From a virus (Duplodnaviria > Caudoviricetes): 64,000 nt of DNA. The notes below the pieces were generated by a model that was given only the letters and a program-made list of their open reading frames with translations, ran no database searches and had not been told where the DNA came from. Shown in pieces: positions 3,884-54,177 of this stretch (its first letter is position 1; each line of letters begins with the position of its first letter). Position numbers and translations under genes: made by a program. The stretch lies in the IMG/VR virus record IMGVR_UViG_3300028197_000002. The stretch is one strand, 5' to 3'.

Positions 3884-4444
3884 ATGGATGATATAGAAAT
3901 AGAAAATCTTTTAGAAAATACTAAAAGCAAAAAAATAAAATCTAAGCCAAAAGGCAAAAGAGTTGAGCTTCAATTAGCGAAAGATTTAAATGAAAGATTT
4001 GATTCCATTTTTACAAAAAATCCAAAATGGGGAAAATTTTCTAGGACCATAGGATCAGGAAATCGTTGGGGGCAGAATGTTCATTTGTCAAAAGCCTCAA
4101 TGGACAACTTTTCTGGAGATCTGGTTTGCCCTCCTTCTTTTAAATTTGTAATTGAATCAAAAGGAGGATACAACGAAATAGATCTTTGCTCTGCTTTTTC
4201 AAAAGGAAATTCTGAGCTAGATTCTTTTTTAAAGCAAGTTTCTGATGATTCCGAAAGAACAGGAAGAAAACCTTTGTTGTTCTGGAAAAAAGATAGAAAG
4301 CCTAGGTTGTCTTTTTTAAAGATAAAAGATATAGGAAATATAAATAAATTATCTTTTGACTACCACATGAAATATAAAGATTGGATAGTTATAGAATATA
4401 AAGATTTAATTAGTTTTAAAGATGACTTTTTTTTTGAAAACTAG
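3884..4444 (+). CDS. Holliday junction resolvase (Hjc-like PD-(D/E)xK nuclease)
   Basis: KGKRVELQLAK...SGDL...IESKGGY matches the Hjc motif order (G..xE, D, ExK). Confidence 0.7.
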   Translation: MDDIEIENLLENTKSKKIKSKPKGKRVELQLAKDLNERFDSIFTKNPKWGKFSRTIGSGNRWGQNVHLSKASMDNFSGDLVCPPSFKFVIESKGGYNEIDLCSAFSKGNSELDSFLKQVSDDSERTGRKPLLFWKKDRKPRLSFLKIKDIGNINKLSFDYHMKYKDWIVIEYKDLISFKDDFFFEN

Positions 4445-4785
4445 ATTTTATTTACAGGAACCTCTAAATTGCTTAAGATTTTTTCTATCTCTGAAACACA
4501 AGACTGCAAGACGTTTTCTAGTTTGTTTTCTACTTCTACGCTTTTTTTTATATTATATCCACATTTTTGTAGAGTTTCCAAATGCTTGACTTGATCATTT
4601 GGCACTTTTGATCTAATTATTCTTCTTATTTCTTTTACAATGTTATCTGCTGCTCTATTGATATCTCTAGAGCCTATGTTGTCCAGATTATCTATCAAAT
4701 CTTGAATAGCATTTAATATGTCTCCAATTCTTCCTGTTAGATAAACAGTATTTTCATTTAATATAAATTCTTTAAAATTAATCAT
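4441..4785 (-). CDS. Hypothetical protein with an N-terminal FKEF..NE motif
   Basis: 114-aa ORF starting MINFKEFILNE. Confidence 0.6.
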   Translation of the reverse strand: MINFKEFILNENTVYLTGRIGDILNAIQDLIDNLDNIGSRDINRAADNIVKEIRRIIRSKVPNDQVKHLETLQKCGYNIKKSVEVENKLENVLQSCVSEIEKILSNLEVPVNKI

Positions 4786-5200
4786 CGTTTGCCAACTTAA
4801 CTTCTGATTTGGGTTTCTTTTTATTCTTTACATTTTTACCTAATTTCAAGTTCTTTACACTTCGAACACAAGCTCTTGCTTCTTCCATAGAATCGGTCGA
4901 TCCTTGGTGAAATAGGTCTTTTGCGGTATTTAAATTTTTAATGCTATATTCTAAAACAGCATCTTCAATTATATACCCTTCTTCGGTGTATTTTTGATGC
5001 TGAGTTTTGGGAACATTGAAACAACCAAAGCACATTTTTGAATAGTTGTTGTTGTCAACAAAAGGGGAAGATCTGTGGGAAACCACATACAAATCCATTT
5101 TTTGATTACAAATTGGACAATTTTTAAATGCTTTTTTCACACTTGTTTTTGTTGCTTTTTTTCTTGACATTTTTGTAATTTTTAGATTAATTTTTTTCAT
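4778..5200 (-). CDS. Hypothetical basic protein with two CxxC pairs (putative zinc ribbon)
   Basis: CPIC and CFGC pairs; Lys-rich. Confidence 0.55.
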   Translation of the reverse strand: MKKINLKITKMSRKKATKTSVKKAFKNCPICNQKMDLYVVSHRSSPFVDNNNYSKMCFGCFNVPKTQHQKYTEEGYIIEDAVLEYSIKNLNTAKDLFHQGSTDSMEEARACVRSVKNLKLGKNVKNKKKPKSEVKLANDD

Positions 5201-5236
5201 AAGTCAATTTTATATTAAAAAAAATTAAAGTAAAGT

Positions 5237-5986
5237 CTATTTGTATTTTAAAATAAAATCCAAAGCTTCACTCTCAAATATAGAAGACAATAACTCAGCA
5301 TTGGGGATAATGCAATGACCTCCAATTTTATTGTTTTCAGGAGGAATTAAATTTGGCCTTGAAAATATTTTTTTTCCTAATTCCTCGTATCCTTCATTGT
5401 AAGTTTCATTCCATTTTTTTATAATATCAAAATTCAAATTTTGTTTATCAAAATGTTTTTTCATTTCTCCATGAAAAGCAATGCATAGCCCATAATAAGT
5501 TGTGCTATATAACTTGGCCAACTCAGTATTTGAAGATCCTAAAATTAAATCGTATTTTAAATTCAAATCCTCAAAATGTTTTTTAGATAATTCTTTTTCT
5601 TCTTCATTTTGATAGCCTATGTATTTGACAAAAGTTTTCAAAGCTTGATATAGATTAGGATGGATGCCTCTTACAGGCGAATGGACCACAGGCAATGATG
5701 ATATTTTTCTTATTTTATTAGTTACATCAGGTAGCGTTGTAGAATGTATTATTGTTAAATTAGGTTTGTATTGAAACATCACCTCTGCAACAGTGTTTAT
5801 AAAATTATCTTCATCTTCAAAAGATATGCAAATGTTTAATATTTCTATATTTTTAAAATCATCAAGATGTTTGTCGCAAGAATAAGGGTCTCTGATTTTT
5901 ATTTCAAAATCAGATTTAAAATCTTGGTAAATCTTAGAAATAGATTTGCCAATTTCTCCATGTCCTAAAATTCCTATTTTTTTCAT
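5237..5986 (-). CDS. UDP-glucose/GDP-mannose dehydrogenase family protein (short form)
   Basis: Rossmann GHGEIG, HSTT.P, HSPVRG, ELAKL and catalytic GGHC. The C-terminal UDP-binding domain is missing. Confidence 0.75.
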   Translation of the reverse strand: MKKIGILGHGEIGKSISKIYQDFKSDFEIKIRDPYSCDKHLDDFKNIEILNICISFEDEDNFINTVAEVMFQYKPNLTIIHSTTLPDVTNKIRKISSLPVVHSPVRGIHPNLYQALKTFVKYIGYQNEEEKELSKKHFEDLNLKYDLILGSSNTELAKLYSTTYYGLCIAFHGEMKKHFDKQNLNFDIIKKWNETYNEGYEELGKKIFSRPNLIPPENNKIGGHCIIPNAELLSSIFESEALDFILKYK

Positions 5987-6408
5987 TTTCCCGTAGAGCC
6001 AAAGCCTCCTGATCCTCTTGTGGTCGAGGACAAATTCTCAGTTTTTTCAAAATCAAAATTAAAACAAGCCTCTATAATGAGTTGAGCTATTTTGTCTCCT
6101 TTTGAAATATTAAAAGAAGAATTTGAATCTGTGTTGAAAAGTATAACTTTTACTTCTCCACGATACGAAGCATCTACGACTCCTGCTAAAACATCTATGC
6201 CACTTTTAAGTGCATGACCTGATTTAGGGGCTATTCTTCCATAATAGTCTGAGGGTATCTCTATAGATATCCCAGTAGAAATTGCCTTTCTTTCTAATGG
6301 TTGTATTATTGCGTCTTCAGAAGCAAACAAATCCGCTCCTGCGTCGGATGGATTTGCTCTATATGGAATTTTTGCATCTTCATTGAGAAGCTTTACTTTT
6401 ATAGGCAT
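5983..6408 (-). CDS. dut: Trimeric dUTPase
   Basis: AGADL, GRIAPKSG, GVVDASYRGEVKV, GDKIAQL and RGSGGFGSTG motifs. The likely start is MPIKVKL at 6408. Confidence 0.97.
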   Translation of the reverse strand: MPIKVKLLNEDAKIPYRANPSDAGADLFASEDAIIQPLERKAISTGISIEIPSDYYGRIAPKSGHALKSGIDVLAGVVDASYRGEVKVILFNTDSNSSFNISKGDKIAQLIIEACFNFDFEKTENLSSTTRGSGGFGSTGK

Positions 6409-6409
6409 T

Positions 6410-8062
6410 CTATCCCTCACATGCTGCACAAGTTAAAATAGATCTAGCTAGTTCTTGCGCAGGGTTGGCCGATCTCTGATAATAAAAAGTTTTAACCCCC
6501 ATTTCCCACCCTTCAATAAGCAAAGAATTAACTTCCTTTGGAGATGCTGAAGGCGGTATCATTAAGTTTAATGATTGGGATTGATCAATATATTTTTGAC
6601 GCTGGGCGGCTTGAACGACTATGTCTCTTTGACTTATTTCTCCAAAAGTTTTAAAAACATCTTTTTCTTCTTGGCTAAGAAAATTCAAGTGTTGGACTGA
6701 TCCACCTTTTACAAGAATGCTTTTCCAAGTTTCGTCATTGTTTTTATCGTGTTCTTTCAAGATAACTCTTAAATAAGGATTTTTATAAGTAAATTTTCCT
6801 TTAGCTAAATTTTTAACAAAATAATTGGAATTTAAAGGCTCTATCGAAGGACTAACTTGACCCAAAATGAAAGAACTGGATGTTGTTGGAGCAACTGCTA
6901 AAGTTGTTACGTTTCTTCTTCCATATCCCTTTAAAAGTTCTGGTTCTCCAAATTCTTTGGCCATCTCTTCTGTGGTCTTATCTGCTCTTTCTCTTATGGA
7001 CTTCCAAATTTCCATATTTAGATACTTGGCTTCCATTGACTCGAAGGAAATCATTTTAGATTGAAGTAAAGAATGCCATCCTAAAACTCCCATTCCCAAA
7101 GCTCTTTGCTTTTTAGCAAAATCATGAGGAGCTTCCATGTAAGGAACCCCTTCTGTTTTAACAACAAACTCTTCATTTACAGCGTCTAAAAATTTAACTA
7201 ATGTTTCTACCGCGTCTGTTTCTTTTATTTCATCCCAATGAAGTAAATTTATAGAAGATAACACACAAACAAAAGAATTGTCCTTGTCAGAGTGAAGCTG
7301 GATTTCGCTACACAGATTAGAAGCATTTATTTTTAATTTTTTATCTTTATAAACTTTTGGAGCTTGTTTGTTGGTGTTATCAACAAACATGATGTATGGA
7401 TAACCAGTCTCAAATCTTTTTTGAATTACTTTGGCCCACAATTTTCTTTTTTCTTTATCGCCTTCGATAAGTTCTTTCATAAACTTATTGGTAACAGTAA
7501 CTCCTATGCTCATATTTTGAATTGGATGACCTTCGCCTCTAATGTGAAGAAACTCTTCAATATCAGAATGTTCTATTGGCATATAGGCAGCAAAAGAGCC
7601 TCTTCTTGCGCTTCCTTGACTGATGACCTCTGCTACTTTGTCAAAGATTTCCATAAAGTGCACAGCGCCACTAGATTCTCCTCCTACGCTTATCTTGGTT
7701 CCTCTTGCTCTCAGGTCACCAAAAAAGCCTGAAGTGCCTCCGCCAAGTTTTGACATCATGCCAACTTCTGAGGCTTTAGTTAATATGGACTCCATTTTGT
7801 CTTGTATATGACTTCCAAAGCAACTTACAGGAAGTCCTCTTTTATTTCCAAAGTTTGTCCAAATAGGAGTGGCTAAAGAATAGAACCCTTTAGCCATATA
7901 GTCTTCAAACTTCTTGGCGAAATTTTTTATTTTTAATATTTTTTCTGCGTTTTTAGCTATTTGCTTTATTCGTTGCTCAGGAGTAACTCCTTCTTCCAAA
8001 TAGCCTCTTTTTAAAAATAATCTACTATGATTGTTTAGCCAATAAAAATCTTGCTTGCTCAT
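6410..8062 (-). CDS. nrdA: Ribonucleotide reductase class I alpha subunit, no ATP cone
   Basis: PVSCF, GGGTSG, SQGSARRG, SNLCSE, APTTSSS, DQSQSLN and TFYY motifs; 550 aa. Confidence 0.95.
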   Translation of the reverse strand: MSKQDFYWLNNHSRLFLKRGYLEEGVTPEQRIKQIAKNAEKILKIKNFAKKFEDYMAKGFYSLATPIWTNFGNKRGLPVSCFGSHIQDKMESILTKASEVGMMSKLGGGTSGFFGDLRARGTKISVGGESSGAVHFMEIFDKVAEVISQGSARRGSFAAYMPIEHSDIEEFLHIRGEGHPIQNMSIGVTVTNKFMKELIEGDKEKRKLWAKVIQKRFETGYPYIMFVDNTNKQAPKVYKDKKLKINASNLCSEIQLHSDKDNSFVCVLSSINLLHWDEIKETDAVETLVKFLDAVNEEFVVKTEGVPYMEAPHDFAKKQRALGMGVLGWHSLLQSKMISFESMEAKYLNMEIWKSIRERADKTTEEMAKEFGEPELLKGYGRRNVTTLAVAPTTSSSFILGQVSPSIEPLNSNYFVKNLAKGKFTYKNPYLRVILKEHDKNNDETWKSILVKGGSVQHLNFLSQEEKDVFKTFGEISQRDIVVQAAQRQKYIDQSQSLNLMIPPSASPKEVNSLLIEGWEMGVKTFYYQRSANPAQELARSILTCAACEG

Positions 8063-8132
8063 TTATTTTTGTACTTAATTTAAGCCTAGGATACTGAAAA
8101 TATAGTATATCAGATAGTGAAAGTTTTACAAA

Positions 8133-9104
8133 TTAAAACAAATCATCTTCTGAGAAGCTTTTTCCTTTTTTACTATATTCAACAGGTCTTGAATGAAAAA
8201 AATCAGACATGTTGTTTCCAAGAACTTGTTCATCAAACCAATGAGTTTTGGCAAGCAATTCTTTATTAATTTCAAATACTTTACTATATCCAATTTCTTG
8301 TAAAGATTCGTTCATTCTATTTTTTATAAATTCTTTTAGAATAGCTGAGTTTAATTTTTCTTCTCCATATCCATTAACAATCCATTCAATGATTTGCATC
8401 TCATACTTGACAGCTTCTTTCGCTTCGCTAATTATTTTTTCTTCTAATTCTTCATCAAATAACTCTGGATATTCGTCTCTTATTACATTTATTATCTTCA
8501 TGCCGATCATAGCGTGAAGGTTTTCCTCTCTAGATGTGTATTCTACTTGCTTGTTGGTATCTTTAAGTAGGTTTCTATATCTTCCAAACCAACTTATTGT
8601 ATAAAATTGTGAAAACAAAGCTATGTTTTCCACAAACAAAGTAAATAAAACCAAAGAATAAATAAATTGTTTTTTATTGTCCGAGTGGAACTTATGCAAA
8701 TGCTTTCTTAAATAATTAACTCTTCCTTTGATAATATCCAGCTCTAACATTTGGTCGAAAGAATCTTCGATTCCCAAGACTTCAAGAAGTCTCTCATAAG
8801 CATCTCCATGTATGACCTCTGTATTTGCCATTACATAGCCCATGTCATTTATGCTTGGATGTGGAAGATTGTCTCCAAGCTTTGCCCAAAACTTTTTAAC
8901 TGATATCTCTAATTGGCCAATTGTCGCTAAAGCTCTTTTTACTATTTCTTTTTCTTGAGCAGTTAAGGAAACCATAAAATCTTGTTTGTCGCTTTGAAAG
9001 CTAAACTCTTTATCAGTCCAAAATCCATTGTGCATTGCTTCAATGAAGTCCTGCGTCCATGAATAGTGGTCTGGCTTCCGTGATATCTGCTCTTCAAAAA
9101 TCAT
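8133..9104 (-). CDS. nrdB: Ribonucleotide reductase beta subunit (class Id-like ligand set)
   Basis: Ferritin-like ligands E66, E96/H99, E159 and E194/H197, with Y103 and K70; C-terminal DFFH..PVEY. Confidence 0.95.
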   Translation of the reverse strand: MIFEEQISRKPDHYSWTQDFIEAMHNGFWTDKEFSFQSDKQDFMVSLTAQEKEIVKRALATIGQLEISVKKFWAKLGDNLPHPSINDMGYVMANTEVIHGDAYERLLEVLGIEDSFDQMLELDIIKGRVNYLRKHLHKFHSDNKKQFIYSLVLFTLFVENIALFSQFYTISWFGRYRNLLKDTNKQVEYTSREENLHAMIGMKIINVIRDEYPELFDEELEEKIISEAKEAVKYEMQIIEWIVNGYGEEKLNSAILKEFIKNRMNESLQEIGYSKVFEINKELLAKTHWFDEQVLGNNMSDFFHSRPVEYSKKGKSFSEDDLF

Positions 9105-9204
9105 ATAAAAATTCTCCTCGTAATTTGTTTTTCTTTATTCTCGATAAGATATATCTAAGTTTGATAAAAAATTTTTTTCAACTATTGAAAATTTTTTTTG
9201 TCAA

Positions 9205-11205: not shown

Positions 11206-11233
11206 GCCATTATAAGATTAAAGTCATTTTCAA

Positions 11234-12298: not shown

Positions 12299-12306
12299 TA
12301 AATAAC

Positions 12307-13445: not shown

Positions 13446-14027
13446 TTATTTTAAATTAGAAATCTGTGGTATGTTTCTAGAGAACCTATCCCAATTCTGT
13501 TCCGCCCACTTTTTAAATTTAACTTCTGCGTTCTTTGGCCCAATTTCATTTGTTTTTCCAGTAGTTTGAAATTCTAATGCATGAGTGGCTTCATGAATAA
13601 TTGTGCTTGCTATTTCTAATATTGCTGCTTTCGAGTCTCTAAGTTCTTTTAAAATTTTATTGACGTTAACTTTTATTACATCTGAAGGTTGAATTTTTGA
13701 TACGTCTATATCTGGAAGATAATCTTTTAAAACTTGATTTGGAAGTTTTTCTAAATTTTGAAGAGCTTTTGGATCGTTCCCAAATTTAAGTCTTATTTTA
13801 GACAAAACATCATTTCCAATTAATTTTTTATTTTCGCCCGAGCTATAAAGGCCATAAACGGATGATGTCAAAGGAGCTATTGTGCTTATGTTTTTCAAAA
13901 GATTTCTATCATACATTCTTACAAGTTGCACTGCGTACTTAGCCTTGTCGTAAATCACATTGAGCTGTCGTTCATCTACTTGATCAGTACCAATCGTATT
14001 TTGTTCAAACCATTTTTTAAAATTCAT
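13446..14027 (-). CDS. Putative zincin-like metallopeptidase (HEXXH) with an N-terminal FKKW motif
   Basis: IIHEATHALE followed by E residues; starts MNFKKWFEQ. Confidence 0.5.
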   Translation of the reverse strand: MNFKKWFEQNTIGTDQVDERQLNVIYDKAKYAVQLVRMYDRNLLKNISTIAPLTSSVYGLYSSGENKKLIGNDVLSKIRLKFGNDPKALQNLEKLPNQVLKDYLPDIDVSKIQPSDVIKVNVNKILKELRDSKAAILEIASTIIHEATHALEFQTTGKTNEIGPKNAEVKFKKWAEQNWDRFSRNIPQISNLK

Positions 14028-16023: not shown

Positions 16024-17082
16024 ATGAAATTTACAGAATGGCTAGCAGCAGAAGAAATGATAACTGAAGTTGACTGGAAAGATGATTTTGAAGATGTAAA
16101 AAAACAATGCGTAAATCCAAAAGATGCAGTAGAGTACTTAAATGCAGTAAGAAAAAATGCTAGTCGTCCATATGGGGACAGAGAAAAATTCCCAGCAAAC
16201 AAACCTTTTGTTCATGCAAAATCTTCTTTCTTTAAGAAAGGAGAAGAAGAGGTAGATATAGATTATTTTATAGATCAAATAACAAAACCTCCAAAAACCG
16301 TTGTTAATACAAATGAAAAAATATTAAAAAGTGGTGGTCCAAATGAATTTGTTTACAAAACTGGAATTCCGGCATTTAGAGGAATAGCCTATGACAAAGA
16401 CAAAGGTGAATTTGTTTACATAAACACCTGTCCCGGAGCAGGAGGTTGTGTTCTTGTGTGTTATGCAAGAAGAGGAAGATACATCCAGTATCCAAATTCA
16501 TATGACAATATGACAAGGCGACTAAATCTTCTTTTGAACGATCCAGAAGAATATGAAAATAGATTATACAAAGAACTCAAATCAAAAGCAGAAGAACACA
16601 AGGCCCTTGAAGGATACAAACCAAAAATCATACTGCGATGGAATGACTCCGGCGATTTTTTTACAAAAAAATACGTAAAGATTGCAGAAGACGTAATTAA
16701 AAAGTTGAATAAAAACAAATACAATGTCGAAAGTTATGCCTACACAAAAACGCCTGATATAAAGCCTGACAAGTCGGTGCAAACAACCGTGTCACTTCAA
16801 CCAAATAAATCAATTTCAAAAGAAGATCAAAAAGTTTCTTTGATTGTTCCCAAAGAATTATTCAAAGGCCTTGACTTTTTAAAAGTAAAAGATGAAGAAA
16901 AATTAAAGGATAATATCTCTGATCATTTTAAATTACCAAAATCTAAAATTTTAACTTATGAAGAAATGAAAAACACTCCAGAAGGAAAAGGTTTAAAATG
17001 GAATGTCATTGTAACTCCAAATGATGGAGATGATGCAGCGTTCAGAAAAGACGTGAAAAGAATTTTACTGACTCAGCACTAA
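16024..17082 (+). CDS. GP88-like protein with a Cys cluster
   Basis: TCPGAGGCVLVCYA (Cx5Cx3C), LRWNDSGDF and AYTK motifs; starts MKFTEWLAAEE. Confidence 0.65.
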   Translation: MKFTEWLAAEEMITEVDWKDDFEDVKKQCVNPKDAVEYLNAVRKNASRPYGDREKFPANKPFVHAKSSFFKKGEEEVDIDYFIDQITKPPKTVVNTNEKILKSGGPNEFVYKTGIPAFRGIAYDKDKGEFVYINTCPGAGGCVLVCYARRGRYIQYPNSYDNMTRRLNLLLNDPEEYENRLYKELKSKAEEHKALEGYKPKIILRWNDSGDFFTKKYVKIAEDVIKKLNKNKYNVESYAYTKTPDIKPDKSVQTTVSLQPNKSISKEDQKVSLIVPKELFKGLDFLKVKDEEKLKDNISDHFKLPKSKILTYEEMKNTPEGKGLKWNVIVTPNDGDDAAFRKDVKRILLTQH

Positions 17083-18543: not shown

Positions 18544-18918
18544 ATGAATTTTAAAAATTATCTAATTGATATTGACGGGACAATTACAGATGATGTTCCA
18601 AACGAAGAACCTGAAAAAATGGAAACATGTTTGCCCTACGAAGGTAGTGTTGAAACTTTAAACAAATGGTATGACGAAGGCCATACGATTACTTTTTTCA
18701 CATCAAGAACAGATGAACACAAAGAAGTTACAGAAAATTGGCTTAAAAAACATGGATATAAATATCATCATTTGCTTTTAAATAAACCAAGGGGTGGCAA
18801 TTACGCAATCATTGATAACCATATGTTTAAATCATGCCATTTTACAGGAAATTGGCCTAAAGTAAAAAAAGAAATGGACTCATATGTCCATGATTATAGT
18901 CCATCTTCAAAAATATAA
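18544..18918 (+). CDS. HAD-superfamily phosphatase (small, capless)
   Basis: DIDGT motif I, FTSR and KP motifs. Confidence 0.75.
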   Translation: MNFKNYLIDIDGTITDDVPNEEPEKMETCLPYEGSVETLNKWYDEGHTITFFTSRTDEHKEVTENWLKKHGYKYHHLLLNKPRGGNYAIIDNHMFKSCHFTGNWPKVKKEMDSYVHDYSPSSKI

Positions 18919-19882: not shown

Positions 19883-20500
19883 TTAATAAATTGTCTTTGA
19901 AAACATTATTTCTTTATTATCTCTTATAAAAGTAATTCCACAATTTTTAATTGAAGTATTTTCTTCAAAATCAAAATTAGAATATCTTTCAAAAAGAATT
20001 TCAACAGTGTTAGTAGCTAAAGCGTGTAAACATCTACACACAGATCCATGAGAAACTATTAAATATTTTCCTTTTGGATCTAAATTAGAATAAAAGCTCT
20101 TAACTCTTGGTACGAACTCTGCAAGACTTTCGTCTTTAAAACAAATCTCTTTTTTATCTTCGATCCACGAAAAGTCATAAATATCTTTTCTGTTTCTTAT
20201 CGTCACACAAGGAGAAATTGAATTTTCTTTAGTGACAGAAAATTCTCTTAATTTATAATTAACTTCAAAGGGAACTTTTATAATATGAGATAAAACTCTA
20301 GAAGTTTGCAAACATCTTAATAAAGGAGAAGTGTATCCAATAAAATTTTCAAAAGGGGTTTTTTGAGAAAAAATATTTTTTAACCATCTTGCAGTAACTT
20401 CCATTTGAGTAAATCCATTATTACTCAAAGAGCTATCTAAATCTTCTGTGGTCCCGATGTTGTTAAAGCTTTCTGCGTGTCGAATTAAAACAAGTTGCAT
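19883..20500 (-). CDS. Histidine phosphatase (phosphoglycerate mutase family)
   Basis: LIRHAES, SPLLRCLQT, LRE and VSHG motifs. Confidence 0.85.
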   Translation of the reverse strand: MQLVLIRHAESFNNIGTTEDLDSSLSNNGFTQMEVTARWLKNIFSQKTPFENFIGYTSPLLRCLQTSRVLSHIIKVPFEVNYKLREFSVTKENSISPCVTIRNRKDIYDFSWIEDKKEICFKDESLAEFVPRVKSFYSNLDPKGKYLIVSHGSVCRCLHALATNTVEILFERYSNFDFEENTSIKNCGITFIRDNKEIMFSKTIY

Positions 20501-20808
20501 TAAACTTCTTTAGCTTTTGGAGCCAAAGTATCTCCTGTGATTTTTCGAATAAGATCAGCAATAAGTATACCTCTATCTATAGAATTTTCAATGGTTTCAT
20601 ATTTAGACCTGTCTCTTTCTTTAATATTTTTAATTACGCCTAAATCAAGCAAATCTTGCTTAAGTTTTCGACTAAATTCTTCTGTATTTCTTTGAAGAAG
20701 ATATTTTTTTTCTCTATCTCCAAGATTTTCATAATTAGAAGAAATTGTTCCTAGTATTGCATCTTCTATCACTTCACTTTTTTGTTCAAACCAAACAGAA
20801 AATTTCAT
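20500..20808 (-). CDS. Hypothetical protein with an N-terminal MKFSVWFE motif
   Basis: 102-aa ORF, translationally coupled to the phosphatase gene. Confidence 0.6.
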   Translation of the reverse strand: MKFSVWFEQKSEVIEDAILGTISSNYENLGDREKKYLLQRNTEEFSRKLKQDLLDLGVIKNIKERDRSKYETIENSIDRGILIADLIRKITGDTLAPKAKEV

Positions 20809-20854
20809 AAATATCCTTGTTTTTAATTAAATTCACATTTATATATACTGTATC

Positions 20855-21658
20855 ATGAGAACATTTAAAGAATGGATAGAAAAAAGACAAGATATTTTTG
20901 GCTTTGAAAAAGAGCAAGAAGAAGACTCGTCGTTTGCCGTAAAAAATCAAGATCCAATTATGCAAGTTGATATTGAGCATATTATGGATGAATTGGCAAA
21001 CACTAAAATCCATGGAAAAAGAGGCAAAATTCCTTATATTAATGAAATACACTGGGGTGACGAAATTGGCTCTTTAAAATTATTGCTAAGTCCCGCTGGT
21101 TCTGGCAAAGCAATAATATCTGGAAAGCAAACTGATCTTGAAAATAAAGATTGTTGGATTTGCAAATCAATAATTCCATATGTGAATCTAGAAGATGCTT
21201 CATTTAGAGATGATGAAAACCTCGCTGATATACTGTATAATAAAATAGATGAAATTGGACCTATAGAAATACCTAAAGCAGAATATTTAAATTTAGAAAA
21301 ACTAACAATTAAGCTTTCTAGAAAATGTTGCAAGCCTGACGTTATACCTAAAATTTTTATATACACAGGAATAAGAGAAGTAGTTAAAGATAAAAATTAT
21401 ATAATAAAATTTGAATGCAAAGGACAAGGAGCAGAGGCTCCGGGAGAAGGTGGAGGAAATAGACTTGAAATGTTTGCCATAGAAACATCTTATAATGATA
21501 AAACTGGTTTGATTAGATGCATGGGTTATGGAGTAACCTCTCCCATGAAAGGCCATAAATGGGAACCACAGCCATCTGATTGGGATGAATATTTTTCTCC
21601 AAAGCAAAAATCAGATGAAATTTGTGAAGCAATTGCCAACGCTTTAAGTATTTTTTGA
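20855..21658 (+). CDS. Hypothetical protein with an N-terminal MRTFKEWIE motif
   Basis: 267-aa ORF with no recognised catalytic motif. Confidence 0.6.
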   Translation: MRTFKEWIEKRQDIFGFEKEQEEDSSFAVKNQDPIMQVDIEHIMDELANTKIHGKRGKIPYINEIHWGDEIGSLKLLLSPAGSGKAIISGKQTDLENKDCWICKSIIPYVNLEDASFRDDENLADILYNKIDEIGPIEIPKAEYLNLEKLTIKLSRKCCKPDVIPKIFIYTGIREVVKDKNYIIKFECKGQGAEAPGEGGGNRLEMFAIETSYNDKTGLIRCMGYGVTSPMKGHKWEPQPSDWDEYFSPKQKSDEICEAIANALSIF

Positions 21659-21796
21659 GGATTTAAAATGATGGGATCTGTTAGTTCTATAGTTCGCTGC
21701 AAAGATTTGGAAAACAAAAACTTTCAAGTTCAGGGTGCATTGTCTAATTTGGATTGTAAAAAAGAAAAGAAAAAAAATAAAACAAAAATAAAAACA

Positions 21797-22297
21797 ATGA
21801 AATTTAGTGAATGGTATGAAATAAGAGAAGCAAAAGAAAAAAAGAAAGTTCCTAAAAAATACCTAAAAGGCTTAAAAGAAAAAGGCGAATACGGATCAAA
21901 AGAAGCAATGAAAAAAGAGATAAAAAAATTCTCAGGCTCTGACGATTACAAAAAAAATTGGGATGCTGATTATAAAAATGGGAAAAGGATAAAAACAAAA
22001 AAATCAGCAGCTACAAAAGCTTATGAGAAAAAGTATGAGTCTAATCTTTTTGAATCTAATGATAATATAGATGTTGCTTTGAAAAACAAATCTGAAAAAA
22101 CTGGAATATCCAAATCAATACTTAGAAAAGTATACAACCGAGGAAAAGCCGCTTGGAATTCTGGACATCGACCGGGTGTTGCTCAAGATCAATGGGCTAT
22201 GGGAAGAGTCAATAGTTTTATAACAGGAAGTGGAGGCGCTCGAAAGGCAGACAAAGATCTTTGGGATAAAGCTAAAAAATCTAGGAAAAAGAAATAA
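21797..22297 (+). CDS. DUF5824-like basic protein
   Basis: ALKNKSEKTGISKSILRKVYNRGKAAWNSGHRPG...WAMGRVNSF pattern. The probable start is MKFSEWYEIRE at 21797. Confidence 0.6.
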   Translation: MKFSEWYEIREAKEKKKVPKKYLKGLKEKGEYGSKEAMKKEIKKFSGSDDYKKNWDADYKNGKRIKTKKSAATKAYEKKYESNLFESNDNIDVALKNKSEKTGISKSILRKVYNRGKAAWNSGHRPGVAQDQWAMGRVNSFITGSGGARKADKDLWDKAKKSRKKK

Positions 22298-23384: not shown

Positions 23385-23762
23385 ATGAAATCAAAAGATG
23401 TATTAGAATACAGGCATAGATGCGCTGATATTTATAAAATAACTCAAGGATGTGTAGAATGCGGATACAATGAACATCCGTCTAATTTGTGTTTTGACCA
23501 TTTGCCACAACATGAAAAGGCTGAAGTATGTAAAAATGGTTACTCAAAAAGATCCACTGCTGGCGGGATGTATAAACTTTATCGTAAAAAATATAGCATT
23601 GATATTTTAATTGAAGAGATGAAAAAGTGTCAGGTTATTTGTCATCATTGCCATATGAAAAATCATCATAAAAAAAATACAAGAACAATTGACAATGTAG
23701 ATGAAAGAATAAATTCTATCGAAGAATTAGAAAGCTTATTAAGAGAATTTGAAGAACAATGA
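23385..23762 (+). CDS. HNH-type endonuclease
   Basis: CVECG...FDH...CQVICHHCH pattern. Confidence 0.65.
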   Translation: MKSKDVLEYRHRCADIYKITQGCVECGYNEHPSNLCFDHLPQHEKAEVCKNGYSKRSTAGGMYKLYRKKYSIDILIEEMKKCQVICHHCHMKNHHKKNTRTIDNVDERINSIEELESLLREFEEQ

Positions 23763-24700
23763 ATCTAAAAGAATTTTATGAAAATAATAAAACTGATCCA
23801 GAGTTTGATCATGAATTCTATTCAAGAGGCGTAATTAAATTCACAAAAAAATTAAGTGAAAATTTACATAAATTTGCCCAGCCCTACTGTAGGGATAACG
23901 ATGTGACCGAGCGAGAGAGACTTTATTATCATTATGAGCTTCACGGGAAAAAACTAGGTCTTTTCAAAAGCCTAGAAGAAATGAAGAAAACTTTTTCAAT
24001 GCAAGAAGACAAGGAAGATATAGATCCAGCGAGTAAAATTTCTGTTGTGTGTGCGTGTATGAATAGGGAAAAAATGCTCAAAGTATCGCTACAGTCATGG
24101 TTGAATTTTGATGAAGTGGATGAAGTTGTAATTATAGATTATTCTTCTATGAATAATTTAAAGTATCTTGAAAAAATAAACAATAAAATAAAAGTTATAA
24201 GAATAGAGGGTCAAAAATACTACAATGTTGCAAAAGCAAATAACTTAGCAGTCTTAAATGCAAAAAATGAAAGGGTAATGAAAATGGATGTGGATTATGT
24301 TTTAAATCCATATTTTAATATATTTAAAATATTAAATAAAGCAATAAGAAGAAATAATTTCATTATCGGAAACTGCAAGCTTGAGCAAGCGGACAATAAT
24401 CTTGGATTTTTAAGATATCTTCATGGATTTTTATACATCTATAAAGAAACTTTTGAAAAATTTGGAAAATACAATGAGAATTTTGAAGGTTATGGGTGGG
24501 AAGACTCAGATGTTCATGTCAAGTTAGAAAAAAATGGTTTAAAAAAAGAATTTATACCTTTTGATCAAATGTATATCTATCATAATCCGCATAGTGATAA
24601 TGTGAGATCAGAAAATTACGAAAATAAAAACATAGAAGAAACTTTTCTCTCAAATCAAAATTACAAAAATGAAGATAAGAAGTACAAATGGATTTGCTAA
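23759..24700 (+). CDS. Glycosyltransferase (GT2 / GT7 C-terminal-like)
   Basis: VVCACMNR, IIDYSS, ANNLA, MDVD (DxD) and YNENFEGYGWEDSD motifs. Confidence 0.85.
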   Translation: MNLKEFYENNKTDPEFDHEFYSRGVIKFTKKLSENLHKFAQPYCRDNDVTERERLYYHYELHGKKLGLFKSLEEMKKTFSMQEDKEDIDPASKISVVCACMNREKMLKVSLQSWLNFDEVDEVVIIDYSSMNNLKYLEKINNKIKVIRIEGQKYYNVAKANNLAVLNAKNERVMKMDVDYVLNPYFNIFKILNKAIRRNNFIIGNCKLEQADNNLGFLRYLHGFLYIYKETFEKFGKYNENFEGYGWEDSDVHVKLEKNGLKKEFIPFDQMYIYHNPHSDNVRSENYENKNIEETFLSNQNYKNEDKKYKWIC

Positions 24701-47892: not shown

Positions 47893-48146
47893 TTGAGATC
47901 TCCAAAAAATCCTTCTGGATACTCCATTTTAACAACGCCTTCTTTAGAAGGTTCTCCTGTGTCTGGATCTTCCACCCACCACCTTACTTGTTGAACTTCT
48001 ATCCCTAAATCTTCCATATGGCAGTCATCCGACTCAGCTACAGGCATGTTGTATCTTTGCCCGTCAAGCAGAACTGTTACGCTACAATGACTATCTTTTT
48101 TATTAAAAAGACGACAATTGCCACAATTTTTTTCTAATTTTTTCAT
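47889..48146 (-). CDS. Small Cys-containing hypothetical protein
   Basis: CGNC..F...C...C pattern; ATGA overlap with the Cys-rich gene. Confidence 0.6.
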   Translation of the reverse strand: MKKLEKNCGNCRLFNKKDSHCSVTVLLDGQRYNMPVAESDDCHMEDLGIEVQQVRWWVEDPDTGEPSKEGVVKMEYPEGFFGDLK

Positions 48147-48209
48147 ATTGTAAACTTTTCTATAACATAGTAAGATAATGCACTTTTAATTAATTCTATA
48201 GGTACTTAA

Positions 48210-48809: not shown

Positions 48810-48929
48810 GAAATTTAATAGTGAGTTTATTTTTTATTCATGTTGGATTTTTAACTATTTTTTTTATAGTTCAAGTTATTATTGGAACTTTTGTAATATA
48901 TTTAAAAAATAAATAAAGGATATAAATTT

Positions 48930-49397
48930 ATGAATATTTCTGTTGGAAGCGATCATCGTGGATATAAATCTAAGGCAAAGATTATTGAGTTCCTTGAAAA
49001 ACTTGGACATTCGGTCAATGATGTTGGGGCGAATAATGAAGACAGTGTAGATTATCCAGATATTGCCTCTATGGTTGGACGAAGTATTTCAGATGGTTTG
49101 AGTGACCGTGGAATTTTAATTTGCGGTACTGGAATCGGCATGTCTATTGCTGCTAATAAACACAAGGGTGTTCGAGCCGCAATTTGCAATGACATGGTTA
49201 CTGTTGAGATGAGTCGTCGTCATAACAATTTAAATGTGCTTTGTTTATCATCTCAACAGCCGCAGGTAGAAGATTTGGTTTCTATCTGGTTGGAAACTGA
49301 GTTTGAAGGCGGTCGTCATGAGCGACGAATCAATATGATCTCAGAATTAGAAGAAGATAGCGACCGGTTCCGTGGTCCTCCGAGTTGGCACGTTTAA
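48930..49397 (+). CDS. rpiB: Ribose-5-phosphate isomerase B
   Basis: GSDHRG, VDYPD, ILICGTGIGMSIAANK, RRHNN.NVLCL and FEGGRH.RR motifs. Confidence 0.97.
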   Translation: MNISVGSDHRGYKSKAKIIEFLEKLGHSVNDVGANNEDSVDYPDIASMVGRSISDGLSDRGILICGTGIGMSIAANKHKGVRAAICNDMVTVEMSRRHNNLNVLCLSSQQPQVEDLVSIWLETEFEGGRHERRINMISELEEDSDRFRGPPSWHV

Positions 49398-50059
49398 TCT
49401 ATTATTTGTCTTTGAACAGTTTTGCCTAATTGTTCAATTCTTTTTTCTGTATAGACCTCAAATTTCCATCCTCTAACTTTGCAGGCTTCTTTTGCTGCTT
49501 CCCATTTATTTTTGTTTACTTCTAGCGTGGTTTGAGATGAAGGTTTGACTTCCCATAATTCTTTGTGTCCATCCATAAATGTTATAAATAAATCAGGGAT
49601 GTAATCATGTGCATGTCCTTGGTGTAAGTAAGGAACCTTGAATGGTTCGGCATAAAAAGATAAAACATTGTCGTGTTGATCAAGTATCTTATATACTTTT
49701 TCTTCCAGTCCAGACCTGTATTTTATGGCTTTTCCAGTTTTTGTGGATGTATAGGTTCCTTGTTTGAATTTGGGCTTTCTTGTTTTTTTCTTTTTCCCTT
49801 TAAAGTCATGCCATATAATTGCTCTGTTTTGTCCTTTGTATTTTTTAAAATCAAAACTGGGATGTTTTGCTTTAAAGTGCATCTTCATGTCTCGAACAGG
49901 AGCTTGACAATGCTCTAGTGGACAAACAATGTATTCTCTTCCCTCTTCATGTTCTTCGAGAAGGTGTTCTTTGAACTCATAATATTCTTCAAACTCCATT
50001 CCACAGCAAAAACACTGGTATTTTCTAGAATTGTTATTGTTATTAAATGGTAATGTCAT
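49394..50059 (-). CDS. TnsA/T4 gp4-like PD-(D/E)xK endonuclease with two N-terminal C2H2 zinc fingers
   Basis: YRSGLE, EPF..PY, YIPDLF, EVKP and KWEAA motifs. N-terminal Cx2Cx12Hx4H and Cx4Cx9Hx4H. Confidence 0.75.
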   Translation of the reverse strand: MTLPFNNNNNSRKYQCFCCGMEFEEYYEFKEHLLEEHEEGREYIVCPLEHCQAPVRDMKMHFKAKHPSFDFKKYKGQNRAIIWHDFKGKKKKTRKPKFKQGTYTSTKTGKAIKYRSGLEEKVYKILDQHDNVLSFYAEPFKVPYLHQGHAHDYIPDLFITFMDGHKELWEVKPSSQTTLEVNKNKWEAAKEACKVRGWKFEVYTEKRIEQLGKTVQRQIID

Positions 50060-50376
50060 TTTTGTTTAATTTCTGATTTGTCTATTACTTCAATTTCATC
50101 TAAATCTTTAATCGTAAATATCAACTCTTTTCTTTCATCTTTTGAATCCAAATCAAAAGCTTTAAATGTCGCATCTTTGCAAAATTCTTTTTCATCTTCA
50201 TTTGGGTTTTTCATTTTTGCGAAAGTTAATCTGCTTTGCTCAGGTGCTCCATATAGTTTTCCTTCTTTTTTAAAGAAAAACACTAATCCATTATCTTCAA
50301 TAGCACAATTTTTATCAAAATTTTCTTTGATATTGTCCCAATTATTTAATAATGTTCTAAAACTAGAAAAATGCAT
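50056..50376 (-). CDS. Hypothetical protein
   Basis: GGAGG Shine-Dalgarno supports an ATG at 50376 rather than the TTG at 50391. Confidence 0.6.
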   Translation of the reverse strand: MHFSSFRTLLNNWDNIKENFDKNCAIEDNGLVFFFKKEGKLYGAPEQSRLTFAKMKNPNEDEKEFCKDATFKAFDLDSKDERKELIFTIKDLDEIEVIDKSEIKQK

Positions 50377-50405
50377 AAAAAAATCCTCCAACTCTATATA
50401 TTGCT

Positions 50406-50798
50406 ATGGACAATTTATCGTTTACTAATTTTTTAAAAAATGAAGAAGCTGGACTTCTAGATGCTCTAAGCCAGCAATTAAATATTAATTTAGATGATCT
50501 TAAAAAAGACCCTAAATTAGCATCTTTCTATTCGTTTGGAGCAATTACTCATAATATTGGTTCTTACGTGATTTTAGATTATAAAAAAAATAGAGAAGGG
50601 AAAATAACTCATGCATTAGTTAAACAAATAAATGATCCAAAAATGAAAAATGTTCAATATCGAAACAATAACATTGTGAAAAATTCTCACGCAAATAAAA
50701 AGTTTCTTGTGTCAATCGAAGATTTAGAAAAATTAATGCTTCAAGGACAAGACAAACCGGCAGACGCAGGTATGGGAATGATGGGAGGAATGATCTAA
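50406..50798 (+). CDS. Hypothetical protein
   Basis: Starts MDNLSFTNFLKNEE and ends in a Gly/Met tail. Confidence 0.6.
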   Translation: MDNLSFTNFLKNEEAGLLDALSQQLNINLDDLKKDPKLASFYSFGAITHNIGSYVILDYKKNREGKITHALVKQINDPKMKNVQYRNNNIVKNSHANKKFLVSIEDLEKLMLQGQDKPADAGMGMMGGMI

Positions 50799-50803
50799 TG
50801 GTG

Positions 50804-50983
50804 ATGAAATTTAAAGAATGGCTGTTGGCTCAAGAATCCACCACAACAGCATCTGTAGCAACATTTGCTCGCCCAGTAGGAATGATGGTTAGAAGAAAGT
50901 TTTCAAATCCAATAGCAATAAATCCTAAAGATGATGCAAAAAGCATTGTTAAAAAATTAAAACTTTTAAACATTGATGAATAA
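50804..50983 (+). CDS. Small protein with an N-terminal MKFKEWLLAQE motif
   Basis: The motif supports the start at 50804. Confidence 0.55.
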   Translation: MKFKEWLLAQESTTTASVATFARPVGMMVRRKFSNPIAINPKDDAKSIVKKLKLLNIDE

Positions 50984-51034
50984 TAACTTTTCAAATACAA
51001 TGACTTTATTAAAATCTTAAATTAGAGAAGTTAT

Positions 51035-51898
51035 ATGTATATTCTTGAACAGTACGACGCGTCCTTAAGAGACATTTTGCGTATAGGCGTTTATCAAAAA
51101 AATAGAACAAACCATGCCGCGTTGTCTGTTTTTGGTATGCAAAAAAAGTACAGAATTGATGAGTATTTTCCTCTATTGACGGGTAGGAAAATATGGCCAA
51201 AAGCCATCTTTGCAGAGCTTCTTTGGTTTATCTCTGGATCTACAAATAACAATAATCTTAGATCTTTAGGTTCTAAGATTTGGGACTTATGGTCTAATGA
51301 AGAATTTGAAAAAGAAAATGGCTATGAGAAAGGAAGCTTGGGTCCTTTGTATGGCTTTCAATTGCGTCATTTTGGAGGAAGCTATAACAAAGGCGTAGAA
51401 GACGAAGTTGGTTATGGCCATGGAGGATTTGATCAATTAGAAAATATGGTTAATTTGTTGAAGACAGATCCTAATTCTAGAAGAAACTTATTTTCTTTAT
51501 GGAATCCAAATCAAATAAAAGATATGAGATTGCCTCCATGTCACTATACGTTTCAAGTTTATGTTAATGAAAATAAATTAAGTGGAATGCTGACTCAAAG
51601 ATCTTGCGATTTTCCTATCGGCGCACCAGCAAACATCCAATTTTACTCTTCTTTGATTTACATGCTGGCCCAACAGTGTGGATACGAACCTTATGAGTTT
51701 ATTCATTCTGTTGGAGATGCTCACATATATGTAAATCAAATAACGCAAGTAGAAAAATATTTAGAACGAAAGTCCAAGCCTGAATCGCCTAAATTAAATT
51801 TAAAAAAGGCTAAAGACATATATTCATATTCATTGAGTGATTTTGAAATTGAAGATTACAATCCATTGAATCCTATATCCATTCCTGTTGAAGTTTAG
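51035..51898 (+). CDS. thyA: Thymidylate synthase
   Basis: FPLLT, ELLWFISG, LGPLYGFQLR, LPPCH, QRSCD, N..FY and GDAHIY motifs. Confidence 0.97.
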   Translation: MYILEQYDASLRDILRIGVYQKNRTNHAALSVFGMQKKYRIDEYFPLLTGRKIWPKAIFAELLWFISGSTNNNNLRSLGSKIWDLWSNEEFEKENGYEKGSLGPLYGFQLRHFGGSYNKGVEDEVGYGHGGFDQLENMVNLLKTDPNSRRNLFSLWNPNQIKDMRLPPCHYTFQVYVNENKLSGMLTQRSCDFPIGAPANIQFYSSLIYMLAQQCGYEPYEFIHSVGDAHIYVNQITQVEKYLERKSKPESPKLNLKKAKDIYSYSLSDFEIEDYNPLNPISIPVEV

Positions 51899-51901
51899 TT
51901 A

Positions 51902-52438
51902 ATGATAAATTTAATAGTAGCTTTTGACGACAAGTACTCCATAGGAAAAGATAATCAGATTCCGTGGCACTTTCCAGAAGACTTGATAAATTTTAAAAAA
52001 ATTACTTCTGGTCATGTTTGCATAATGGGAAGAGCTACTTGGCTAAGTTTACCAGATAGATTTAGGCCTCTTCCAAACAGGACTAATGTTGTAATTTCAA
52101 AAGAAAATTTTTCTTATTTTGAAAAAACATTTGGGAATTCTGATTCTGCCTCCCTTGGAAATCATGATAAAAATAATTTCAATTGTTTTTCTGATATATC
52201 CTCGGCTTTAAATTTTTATGAAGGAAAAGAAATTTTTGCCATAGGTGGAAGAAATATCTTTAAAGAATTTATTTCTAATAACTTTGTTCAAAAGATGATA
52301 GTGACTCATGTTTTTGGAGACTACAAAGGAGATGTAAAGTTCCCGATAGAAGAATGGAATTATTTCGAAAACAAAGTTAGTAAAAAAGTTGTTATTTTTG
52401 AGAATGACAAAATGAAGATGGTAGAGTATTACTTATGA
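51902..52438 (+). CDS. folA: Dihydrofolate reductase
   Basis: IGKDNQIPWHFPEDL..FK, IMGRATW.SL, RPLPNR.N and IGG motifs. Confidence 0.95.
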   Translation: MINLIVAFDDKYSIGKDNQIPWHFPEDLINFKKITSGHVCIMGRATWLSLPDRFRPLPNRTNVVISKENFSYFEKTFGNSDSASLGNHDKNNFNCFSDISSALNFYEGKEIFAIGGRNIFKEFISNNFVQKMIVTHVFGDYKGDVKFPIEEWNYFENKVSKKVVIFENDKMKMVEYYL

Positions 52439-53826
52439 CAACGAATGATTATTTAAGTTCTATATGCAAAAATCTTCCTAAGATTGCTGTTTTGGGGGAT
52501 TCTATAATAGACGAATATTACGAGGTGACAGCCAACAGAATTAGCCCAGAATTTCCTATTCCAGTTATGGAAAGTGAATCTATTCTTCCTTATGAAGTCC
52601 TGCCGGGAGGTGCTGGTAATGTTTGCCATCAGTGCAAAAGCTTTTCCCCTAGCGTTCATTTTTTTGGAATTTTAAATGAATATGCACATGAAGTTTTTAA
52701 AGATAAAATGTATATTGGATCTCCTGTTTTGGCTAATCATTTGAATTGTAAAATTCCAATAAAAAAAAGATTTTATGAAGGAGATTTTCCACTCTGCCGA
52801 ATGGATGAGGAATCAAAAAAATACAACTTACGACAGGCAGATTTTTTTGATTCGTATTCAAGTATTTTATCTAAATTAAATTCTACTTTTGATGTTGCTA
52901 TATTTTCTGATTATTCAAAAGGATTTTTTGAAGATTTAGATATAAGTTCTTTTTTTAAAAAAATTCCAAATGCTTTAAAAGTAGTAGACCCTAAAAAAGG
53001 ACCTTTGTTTAAATGGAAAGGTTGTGACATTATAAAGCCTAATTCTAAAGAGGCGGAAATAATTAGTGGTGAAAAAGATTGGAAATCTCAAGCTACTTAT
53101 TTTTCAAAAGAGACGGATTGTCGCAACGTGATAATCACACAGGGAGGTGAAGGGGTAGTTGGTCTTATAGATGGACGTTTTTTTGAATATCGCCCAGACT
53201 TTAGAGTAAAAGCCAATTCCGTTGTTGGAGCTGGTGATTGTTTTATTTCTGTTTTATCTATTTTCGCTGCGAGTGGAGTTCCTATTGAAAAGTGTGTTGA
53301 AATAGCTTTTAAAGCAGGCTCTAAATATGTTACAAATAAGCATAATGCTCCTGTGTGGCCTACTGACTTGATTGGGTCCAAGGTTGTTGATGCTGATCTT
53401 TTAGTAAATAGAAATTTTAAGTTGTGTTTCACAAATGGCTGTTTTGATATTATTCATTCTGGCCATTTGAATTCTTTAAGGTTTGCAAAAGAGAAAGGCG
53501 ACAAGCTCGTAGTAGGTGTTAATTCTGATGCGAGCGTAAATAGCCAAAACAAACATCACCCTTTAATAAATGATATTCGTCAAAGGATAGATGTTTTAGA
53601 ATCTTTAGAATTTGTTGATTTTATTGTTGTTTTTAATGAAAGAACCCCTTTAGGGTTGATTGAAAAAATAAGGCCAGATGTGCTTGTGAAGAGTGAAGAG
53701 TATAAAAATCCTCCATTATATCCACCCATAGGTTCTGAATTTGCTGGAGAAGTTATTTTTTCTCCAATGATCGAAAACTTTTCTACCTCAAATATTATAA
53801 AAAATATAAAAAACAATAATAGATAG
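52435..53826 (+). CDS. hldE: Bifunctional heptose-7-phosphate kinase / heptose-1-phosphate adenylyltransferase
   Basis: PfkB domain (GD.I.DEY...RISPE.PIPV, GGAGNV, SDYSKG, VDPK, PN.KEA, GAGD) followed by TNGCFDIIHSGH, LVVGVNSD.SV and RPDVLVK. Confidence 0.92.
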   Translation: MTTNDYLSSICKNLPKIAVLGDSIIDEYYEVTANRISPEFPIPVMESESILPYEVLPGGAGNVCHQCKSFSPSVHFFGILNEYAHEVFKDKMYIGSPVLANHLNCKIPIKKRFYEGDFPLCRMDEESKKYNLRQADFFDSYSSILSKLNSTFDVAIFSDYSKGFFEDLDISSFFKKIPNALKVVDPKKGPLFKWKGCDIIKPNSKEAEIISGEKDWKSQATYFSKETDCRNVIITQGGEGVVGLIDGRFFEYRPDFRVKANSVVGAGDCFISVLSIFAASGVPIEKCVEIAFKAGSKYVTNKHNAPVWPTDLIGSKVVDADLLVNRNFKLCFTNGCFDIIHSGHLNSLRFAKEKGDKLVVGVNSDASVNSQNKHHPLINDIRQRIDVLESLEFVDFIVVFNERTPLGLIEKIRPDVLVKSEEYKNPPLYPPIGSEFAGEVIFSPMIENFSTSNIIKNIKNNNR

Positions 53827-53833
53827 TATTATT

Positions 53834-54052
53834 ATGAAATTCACAGACTGGCTAGAAATTAGAGAGAACCAAGCAGCAGCGCTCAACAAAACTGCTTTAA
53901 ATATGTTGAAGCGTGGCAATGATAAAAATGTAGGAAAAAAGATAGTTGGAATGTATGACCGTTCTTTAAGACAAGCTAAAGACATAAAAACAGCGGCAGC
54001 TTTAGCCGGAGCAGCAGCCGCAGTTAAAAAATCTCTTGGAATAGATAAATGA
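53834..54052 (+). CDS. Small basic protein with an N-terminal MKFTDWLEIRE motif
   Basis: 72 aa, Ala/Lys-rich. Confidence 0.55.
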   Translation: MKFTDWLEIRENQAAALNKTALNMLKRGNDKNVGKKIVGMYDRSLRQAKDIKTAAALAGAAAAVKKSLGIDK

Positions 54053-54177
54053 AATTCAAAGAGTGGCTAATTTTAAATGAGAAAAAAGGCCCTAAGCCTA
54101 ATTTTCTAAAGCCTAAAGGATTTGTAAAGCCTGCTTCTCCTCATAAAATCAAAAAAGCAACTATATTAAATGTGTAA
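54049..54177 (+). CDS. Small basic Lys/Pro-rich peptide missed by the track (42 aa, MKFKEWLILNEKKGPKP...)
   Basis: Overlaps the previous stop (ATGA) and the next start (TAATG), and carries the shared N-terminal motif. Confidence 0.6.
   Translation: MKFKEWLILNEKKGPKPNFLKPKGFVKPASPHKIKKATILNV

Follow-up and report, generated by a model that had tools for sequence, protein, structure and literature searches.

The 64,000-nt stretch of viral DNA analysed here (IMG/VR record IMGVR_UViG_3300028197_000002, called the window below) encodes a series of proteins that begin with one short N-terminal tag, whose consensus is M-[KR]-(T)-F-[KST]-E-W-[LI]-x(1-3)-h-x-E (h, hydrophobic residue; x, any residue). 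The best-supported explanation of the tag, which we regard as rather likely, is that it is a capsid-targeting sequence (CTS) of the kind found in bacteriophage T4 and is removed by a prohead protease. The source of the window is an uncultivated T4-like giant marine phage, and its genes suggest that this phage probably packs and injects a large kit of proteins that can be predicted from sequence. We infer core binding, cleavage, presence in the virion and injection as the steps of the process. Late in infection, the tag would attach the proteins that carry it to the scaffolding core while the prohead assembles; a serine protease of the gp21 type would cleave behind the final Glu of the tag; and the mature protein, free inside the head, would be carried out with the DNA when the phage next infects. 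All the hallmarks of T4 capsid targeting that can be looked for in sequence appear to be present.

A preliminary description of the window had listed eleven such N-termini and taken them for a motif shared at the start of unrelated proteins. All eleven translate as listed at their coordinates, and the sequence evidence supports the earlier reading of the motif as a packaging tag. The one at 4785 is a variant in which F replaces W, the one at 50406 is weak and the one at 23759 is doubtful. A 259-kb contig from a Joint Genome Institute (JGI) marine metagenome is the same DNA as the window (8 mismatches over a 27-kb overlap), and 166 open reading frames (ORFs), those of the window and of 55.7 kb of the contig upstream of it, were used for counting. 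A regular expression anchored at the N-terminus matched 11 of these 166 proteins, against 0.034 expected from N-terminal composition, which bears out the enrichment over background; the other 155 proteins served as the non-tagged comparison set. When the expression F[KSTRNQ][EDVKQ]W[LIFYVM] was run over the six-frame translation of the window, it matched nine times. Eight of these matches lay 2-3 residues past the ATG with which a genuine ORF starts (14027-, 16024+, 20808-, 20855+, 21797+, 50804+, 53834+ and 54049+), and the ninth lay in a non-coding frame. The same expression gave 21 matches in the six-frame translation of a 362-kb relative, G001, and none of them was at an N-terminus. Pairs of N-terminal 10-mers scoring at least 22 numbered 74 at offset 0, compared with 5 at offset 30 and 9 at offset 60. 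This signal came from one cluster of 18 proteins, consisting of the eleven listed earlier, six upstream proteins, of which three have strict tags and three have looser variants, and one false positive. The false positive, a look-alike at 18544 (MNFKNYLIDIDG), was ruled out as a tag because it is the beta-1 catalytic strand of a HAD phosphatase with its DxD motif.

The sequences downstream of the tag are unrelated, as had been claimed: blastp of the mature parts gave E > 0.06 for all pairs, and the mature parts belong to different families (GP88, DUF5824, GT2) or to none. The codons of the motif differ synonymously (e.g. TTT/TTC, GAA/GAG/GAC and CTA/CTG/TTG), and the DNA upstream of the tagged genes shows no conservation. 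Relatives that carry this tag (type A below) range in GC content from about 31% to 55%. The exact start MKFKEW[LF] was found in 41 IMG/VR stretches with GC contents of 27% to 67%, many of them on contigs of 100-260 kb, and its cargo there includes a dual-specificity phosphatase, a GNAT acetyltransferase and an HExxH protein. Because synonymous codons vary and the tag recurs in relatives of 29-55% GC, the tag is selected as protein. The tagged proteins tend to be basic, with an isoelectric point (pI) above 9 in 73% of them and in 27% of the others (p = 0.007); among them are peptides of 42, 59 and 72 aa, which recall the internal proteins of T4. A box of the TATATA[TA]A type lies 8-45 nt upstream of 6 of the 11 tagged genes, compared with 21 of the 155 others (p = 0.003), and such a box also precedes the portal, gp13 and tail-tube genes. 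We also observed MKFKEWL at the start of an HK97-type capsid protein (Phage_capsid) of unrelated small contigs (L194:12027-13292 and L211:5769-7034), where it is probably a coincidence or the start of a delta domain.

Mullaney and Black reportedly described, in 1996, the CTS of the T4 internal proteins IPI, IPII and IPIII and its removal by the gp21 prohead protease. The resemblance to T4 that the preliminary description had noticed holds up, in that the window tags match closely the tags of IPI, IPII and IPIII as read in record AF158101, from which the T4 sequences were taken. There, IPII and IPIII start MKTYQEFIAE/A and IPI starts MKTFKEF...ITE/A (a slash marks a cleavage site or a candidate site). 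The similar starts are MRTFKEWIE, MINFKEFILNE and the MKFKEWL type in the window, and MKTFNEWLELRE/A, MKTFSEWLE and MTTFSEWLKLKE/D in relatives. The start at 20855, MRTFKEWIE, equals the MKTFKEF of IPI at five of seven positions, the changes being K2R and F7W. Aromatic residues at i and i+3, the spacing seen in T4, were found in all of the 41 non-redundant tags that we collected from four genomes. In T4 IPIII, suppressor studies located targeting mainly at residues 4 and 7 and processing at residues 8 and 10; gp21 cleaves after L/I-x-E, and an uncleavable tag still targets (PMC9026906). Diverse internal proteins of T-even phages have only the CTS in common (PMC3012670), and the CTS has been suggested to let T4-like phages pack varied proteins (PMC9026906).

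The two systems are alike in having a tag of 10-20 residues at the very N-terminus of mostly small, basic proteins that are otherwise unrelated, with near-identical sequences (MKTFKEF or MKTYQEFIAE in T4, M[KR](T)F[KST]EW[LI] here), two aromatics three apart and a hydrophobic-x-Glu end, in a genome with a T4-type portal, an S77 protease, an acidic scaffold and a gp23 capsid protein. They differ in that the second aromatic is Trp here and the spacer before Glu is often 1-2 residues longer. Moreover, at least 14-16 tagged proteins lie in 120 kb here, compared with 3 in the whole of T4; cargo of up to 574 aa occurs here, and of up to 1076 aa in a relative; other leader families are used on the same cargo by related lineages; and the system described here is known from sequence alone. 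The T4 propeptides of gp24 (MAKINELLRE/S), gp67, gp68, gp22 and Alt are likewise short, N-terminal and end in L/I-x-E, but they are found on structural or core proteins and not on varied cargo. The gp24 propeptide resembles, over a few residues only, a leader (MI[RQ]KLLRE[SA]L, type B below) on GP88 of other lineages. The giant phages phiKZ, 201phi2-1 and SPN3US also pack many proteins with their DNA and mature them after Glu, and in the phiKZ-like phages the ejection or inner-body proteins are cut at S/A/G-x-E sites by a gp21-related protease (PMC5694885, PMC9026906). However, phiKZ-like propeptides are mostly longer than 100 residues and have no short common tag, and neither the capsid protein nor the tag is T4-like.

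The head module of the window phage lies on the same contig, some 48 kb upstream (at 46-53 kb from window position 1), in the order T4 portal, a 580-aa unknown, Peptidase_S77, a 306-aa acidic gp22-like protein and Gp23. The protease gene encodes a match to Peptidase_S77 (PF03420, 92 bits) and to phrog_207 (head maturation protease), and the protease is found in relatives too; the capsid protein matches Gp23 with 287 bits. The scaffold-like 306-aa protein starts MEKIVE/A, and T4 gp22 starts MLKEQLIAE/A. In an alignment of capsid proteins, the T4 gp23 cleavage site FLTE65/A falls on LINE48/A of the window phage, and the aligned site reads [RYH]LINE/[ASN] in the window phage and seven relatives. 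Many tags end like this capsid site, with WLILNE/, FILNE/, WLINE/ or WLLNE/. An [LIV]-x-E with its Glu at residues 8-16 is present in 8 of the 11 tagged proteins but in only 27 of the 155 others (p = 2e-4), and among the 41 non-redundant tags Glu is at W+4 or W+5 in 29. Complex prediction for the 306-aa scaffold-like protein with a tagged 152-aa family gave a score of 0.00, which has no bearing on binding either way. A metagenome scan yielded 80 head-module loci without a type-A tag; none of them comes from the type-A lineage, and the scan is therefore uninformative on the window phage.

We compared the window phage with two complete relatives, G001 (362 kb) and G002 (357 kb), with the partial relatives G006, G008 and G009, and with the uncultured 595-kb LR756511. 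The partial relatives have 7-9 tags per piece of 100-143 kb, and LR756511 has about 16. Orthologous families of 25-64% identity retain the tag, and on these orthologues it is the best-conserved segment. Leaders of the 152-aa family are 11 to 15 residues long, and Glu always stands just before the conserved block, the junction being ..RE/DASRYSV in the window phage and ..E/ followed by G, GN or N and then TRYSV in G009, G006 and G008. In G006 and G009, a tagged protein directly follows the portal gene, which is the position of the T4 core proteins gp67 and gp68. The 10 kb around GP88 in 44 relatives lacked orthologues of most tagged window genes; several of these orthologues lay elsewhere, on longer contigs.

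Comparative support for the portability of the tag comes from GP88, a cargo protein that carries leader A, B, C or D according to lineage. GP88 orthologues from 44 IMG/VR loci (34-64% identity) begin with at least four leader types that differ by lineage: type A, MxFKEWLxxE; type B, MI[KR]KLLRE[AS]L...; type C, MKKxLSLQES...; and type D, M[IT]Kxx.QRLFEMM..... Each leader type ends in hydrophobic-x-Glu immediately before a conserved (I/V)DW. Type A occurred 21 times in type-A loci and not once in 36 other loci, G001 or G002. Type D heads six further proteins in G002, is never internal and ends in K[LI]NE. Types A and D are also present on other proteins, in each case only within their own lineage, whereas types B and C were found, within 20-kb loci, almost only on GP88 and are therefore weaker as shared tags. 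G001 contains a loose type-B-like N-terminal cluster. Further N-terminal peptides are shared within relatives: about six G001 proteins (L050-L068) have [RK]-[IV]-x-[LIV]-T-E-x-Q and about seven have [IL]Q.[KR][LI]..L.E, and seven G002 proteins (L247-L264) have QRLFE[VM]M. Each lineage seems to have its own leader repertoire. A wider generalization may be drawn from these comparisons, although we hold it only tentatively: T4-like megaphages might use interchangeable, lineage-specific N-terminal address codes, with at least four leader types that all end h-x-Glu, and each lineage might put its own code on the shared GP88 and on a dozen or more private, fast-changing proteins.

In the structural model of GP88, residues 1-27 are predicted to be disordered, so that the leader and its junction would be accessible. 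The predicted fold (mean predicted local distance difference test score, pLDDT, 72.8) matched only other GP88-domain proteins among AlphaFold DB clusters, and a comparison with the PDB gave no match. GP88 of all 44 loci (L002-L045) has an invariant C29 and H64, a C136-x5-C142-x3-C146 cluster and an RWNDSGDFF motif. GP88 could be a metal- or cluster-binding enzyme to which every lineage has given its own leader.

Several points weigh against the tag being a protease-cleaved CTS. Of the 11 strict tags, three have no [LIV]-x-E with its Glu at residues 8-16: at 20855 no canonical site is nearby, the tag at 50804 ends A-Q-E, and at 13446 the first V-x-E is at residue 19. For many tags of LR756511, W-L-E is the only such end. 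The h-x-E end is short and common in these Glu-rich proteins, and the conserved LNE/IDW of GP88 could merely be the first residues of the domain. The tagged genes are dispersed among genes of nucleotide metabolism and replication and are not in the head cluster, and some of the cargo is very large (574-1076 aa). The exact TATAAATA precedes a different gene set, and the TATATA box is at best a putative promoter. In addition, the clade has no cultured relative, its capsid protein sharing no more than 33% identity with that of any cultured phage.

We considered whether the tag could be an address for something other than the prohead, namely a degron that times proteolysis, a helix on which a chaperone or host factor docks, or a site for a modifying enzyme like those guided by the leaders of ribosomally synthesized and post-translationally modified peptides (RiPPs). 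A short, conserved, amphipathic N-terminal peptide could fill any such role, and for a degron there is a ClpP-like protease gene within the window (62259-62957). However, ClpP does not follow the tag: G001, which lacks type-A tags, has it, as does LR756511, and the complete G002 lacks it. With regard to a modifying enzyme, neither Radical_SAM nor SPASM was among the Pfam matches for record positions 29.9-112.7 kb (83 kb) or in our own Pfam scans. All of these roles would leave unexplained the match to the T4 tag, the h-x-E end that copies the putative maturation site of the capsid protein, and the Glu that is fixed at the junction of leader and domain while the length and type of the leader change. 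We consider an address of this sort unlikely.

Still less probable, in our view, is that the shared start acts as nucleic acid, either as an AT-rich initiation run or as a conserved 5' end for cassette shuffling. AAA TTT AAA GAA is AT-rich and would leave the initiation region unstructured, in a genome of 31% GC, but the codons vary synonymously, the upstream sequences are not conserved, and the rare TGG (Trp makes up 1.5% of residues) is invariant. Moreover, the same peptide is found in relatives of 42-55% GC, while the 362-kb G001 has none at its N-termini. Hardly credible, and if anything the least probable, is that the tagged genes are diverged paralogues whose shared start is a functionless remnant of common ancestry. 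Accessory genes of phages do duplicate and diverge fast, and G001 has tandem paralogues with similar starts. Nevertheless, the mature parts are without similarity, range from 42 to more than 700 aa and belong to different Pfam families (GP88, DUF5824); the tag is the best-conserved part at 25-64% identity; and GP88 orthologues exchange the leader and keep the domain. A CTS that is removed by the prohead protease remains our preferred explanation of the tag.

The proteins of the window that carry the tag or its proposed variants are listed in the following table.

Table 1. Tagged proteins and weaker candidates in the window (a slash marks the candidate cleavage site).
Coordinates	Strand	Protein	N-terminus and remarks
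4441..4785	-	114 aa, no known family	MINFKEFILNE/N; F-for-W variant, nearest to T4 IPI MKTFKEF; ends L-N-E
13446..14027	-	193 aa, HExxH (HEATH), possibly a small zincin	MNFKKWFEQ
16024..17082	+	352 aa, GP88 family (PF17338)	MKFTEWLAAEE, then MITE/VDW
20500..20808	-	102 aa, no known family	MKFSVWFEQKSEVIE/D; TATATATA box 39 nt upstream
20855..21658	+	267 aa, acidic, no known family	MRTFKEWIE
21797..22297	+	166 aa, basic, DUF5824	MKFSEWYEIRE/A; Pfam domain from residue 19 of this start
23759..24700	+	313 aa, GT2 glycosyltransferase	MNLKEFYENNK; orthologues MDIVEFY
50406..50798	+	130 aa	MDNLSFTNFLKNEE/A; weak variant; aromatics at i and i+3, then L
50804..50983	+	59 aa, basic	MKFKEWLLAQE/STTT
53834..54052	+	72 aa, basic, pI 10.4 after residue 11	MKFTDWLEIRE/N
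54049..54177	+	42 aa, very basic, pI 10.9 after residue 11	MKFKEWLILNE/KKGPK

The start at 21797 is an internal ATG, and a longer ORF opens at 21668; the gene at 50804 may start two codons earlier, at 50798 (MVMKF...). The orthologue of the latter in L186 retains the tag as MKFKEWLAKE/M..SVASFARP. On its sequence, the 50406 protein is a plausible member of the set as a weak variant, and the GT2 protein at 23759, which has neither W nor h-x-E, is a doubtful one. The tag of the 193-aa protein at 13446 is retained in the orthologues of G006, G008 and L175. Its language-model features resemble those of the M85, PipA/GogA/GtgA and Tox-MPTase3 families of small zinc-protease effectors, with an Atlas score of 0.92 and few features in common, a likeness to be taken as a lead only. 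An Atlas search with the 267-aa protein at 20855 gave no usable match. Pfam and PHROGs searches with 20 tagged proteins of the window phage and its relatives left most of them without a family. A marine metatranscriptome run contained contigs 100% identical to two of the tagged genes, over 20537-20810 and 4540-4935, and the contig over the 102-aa gene ends 2 nt upstream of its ATG. These matches (contigs with a word share of 0.08) indicate at most presence in an RNA library and carry no level, strand or timing.

The window has a GC content of 31% and is densely coding, and deposited phages included no near match to it. Its capsid protein, encoded upstream, is 74.9% identical to that of LR756511. 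Pfam matches in the window included proteins of replication and recombination (PolA, a DnaB-type helicase, a gp32-like protein, RecA/UvsX and an SbcCD-like pair) and of nucleotide metabolism (ribonucleotide reductase, dUTPase, ThyA, DHFR and a GMP-reductase-like protein). ThyA, DHFR and a fused PfkB-kinase/cytidylyltransferase (an RfaE-like sugar-nucleotide enzyme) are encoded at 51035-53826, between two groups of small tagged genes. A TnsA-like or endonuclease I-like nuclease with a Cys-rich N-terminal segment is encoded at 49394-50059. Genes for a PrkA-like kinase, a DUF444 (YeaH-like) protein and a SpoVR-like protein are consecutive at 57329-62191 and mirror a bacterial trio that is linked to stress and sporulation.

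The contig upstream of the window carries tail-tube, sheath, gp15, gp13 and baseplate genes and then the T4-type head module. The portal gene (L155:16462-18975) contains an intein (Intein_splicing match), and genes for trypsin-like, subtilisin-like (S8) and M19 peptidases lie near the upstream head and neck genes. Two adjacent tail-tube-like proteins of 188 and 174 aa, which are close paralogues, are encoded at about -8249 to -7055 in window coordinates, with a Phage_T4_gp19 match in the second only. Another pair of close paralogues, of 78 and 80 aa, at about -37673 to -36659, starts MASFTLDLVGAP.

The mechanism considered here is a known one of T4, on a larger scale and with lineage-specific tags, so that the gain is one of scale and generality and not of principle. 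In the library searched, the 21 papers that use the term capsid targeting sequence included none on marine or metagenomic phages. What the comparisons appear to add is that the ends of the tags match the inferred maturation site of the capsid protein, that the Glu junction is kept while leader length changes, and that lineage-specific leaders are exchanged on one conserved cargo, GP88.

Should the tag act as it does in T4, a protein of an uncultivated giant marine phage could be flagged by its first dozen residues as one that is packed and delivered at infection. The packed proteins would then form a short list of the likeliest first-strike tools against host defences. Nearly all of the tagged set in this clade is of unknown function; it includes the Cys-rich GP88-family protein, the small HExxH protein and very basic peptides of 42-72 aa, and in relatives a dual-specificity phosphatase and a GNAT acetyltransferase. 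The exchange of leaders on a single cargo would offer a natural system in which to study the co-evolution of a capsid address and its receptor. If the more tentative reading of the leaders as lineage-specific address codes is true, tag and receptor would co-evolve as orthogonal pairs, and the injected proteome of uncultivated giant phages would be readable from sequence.

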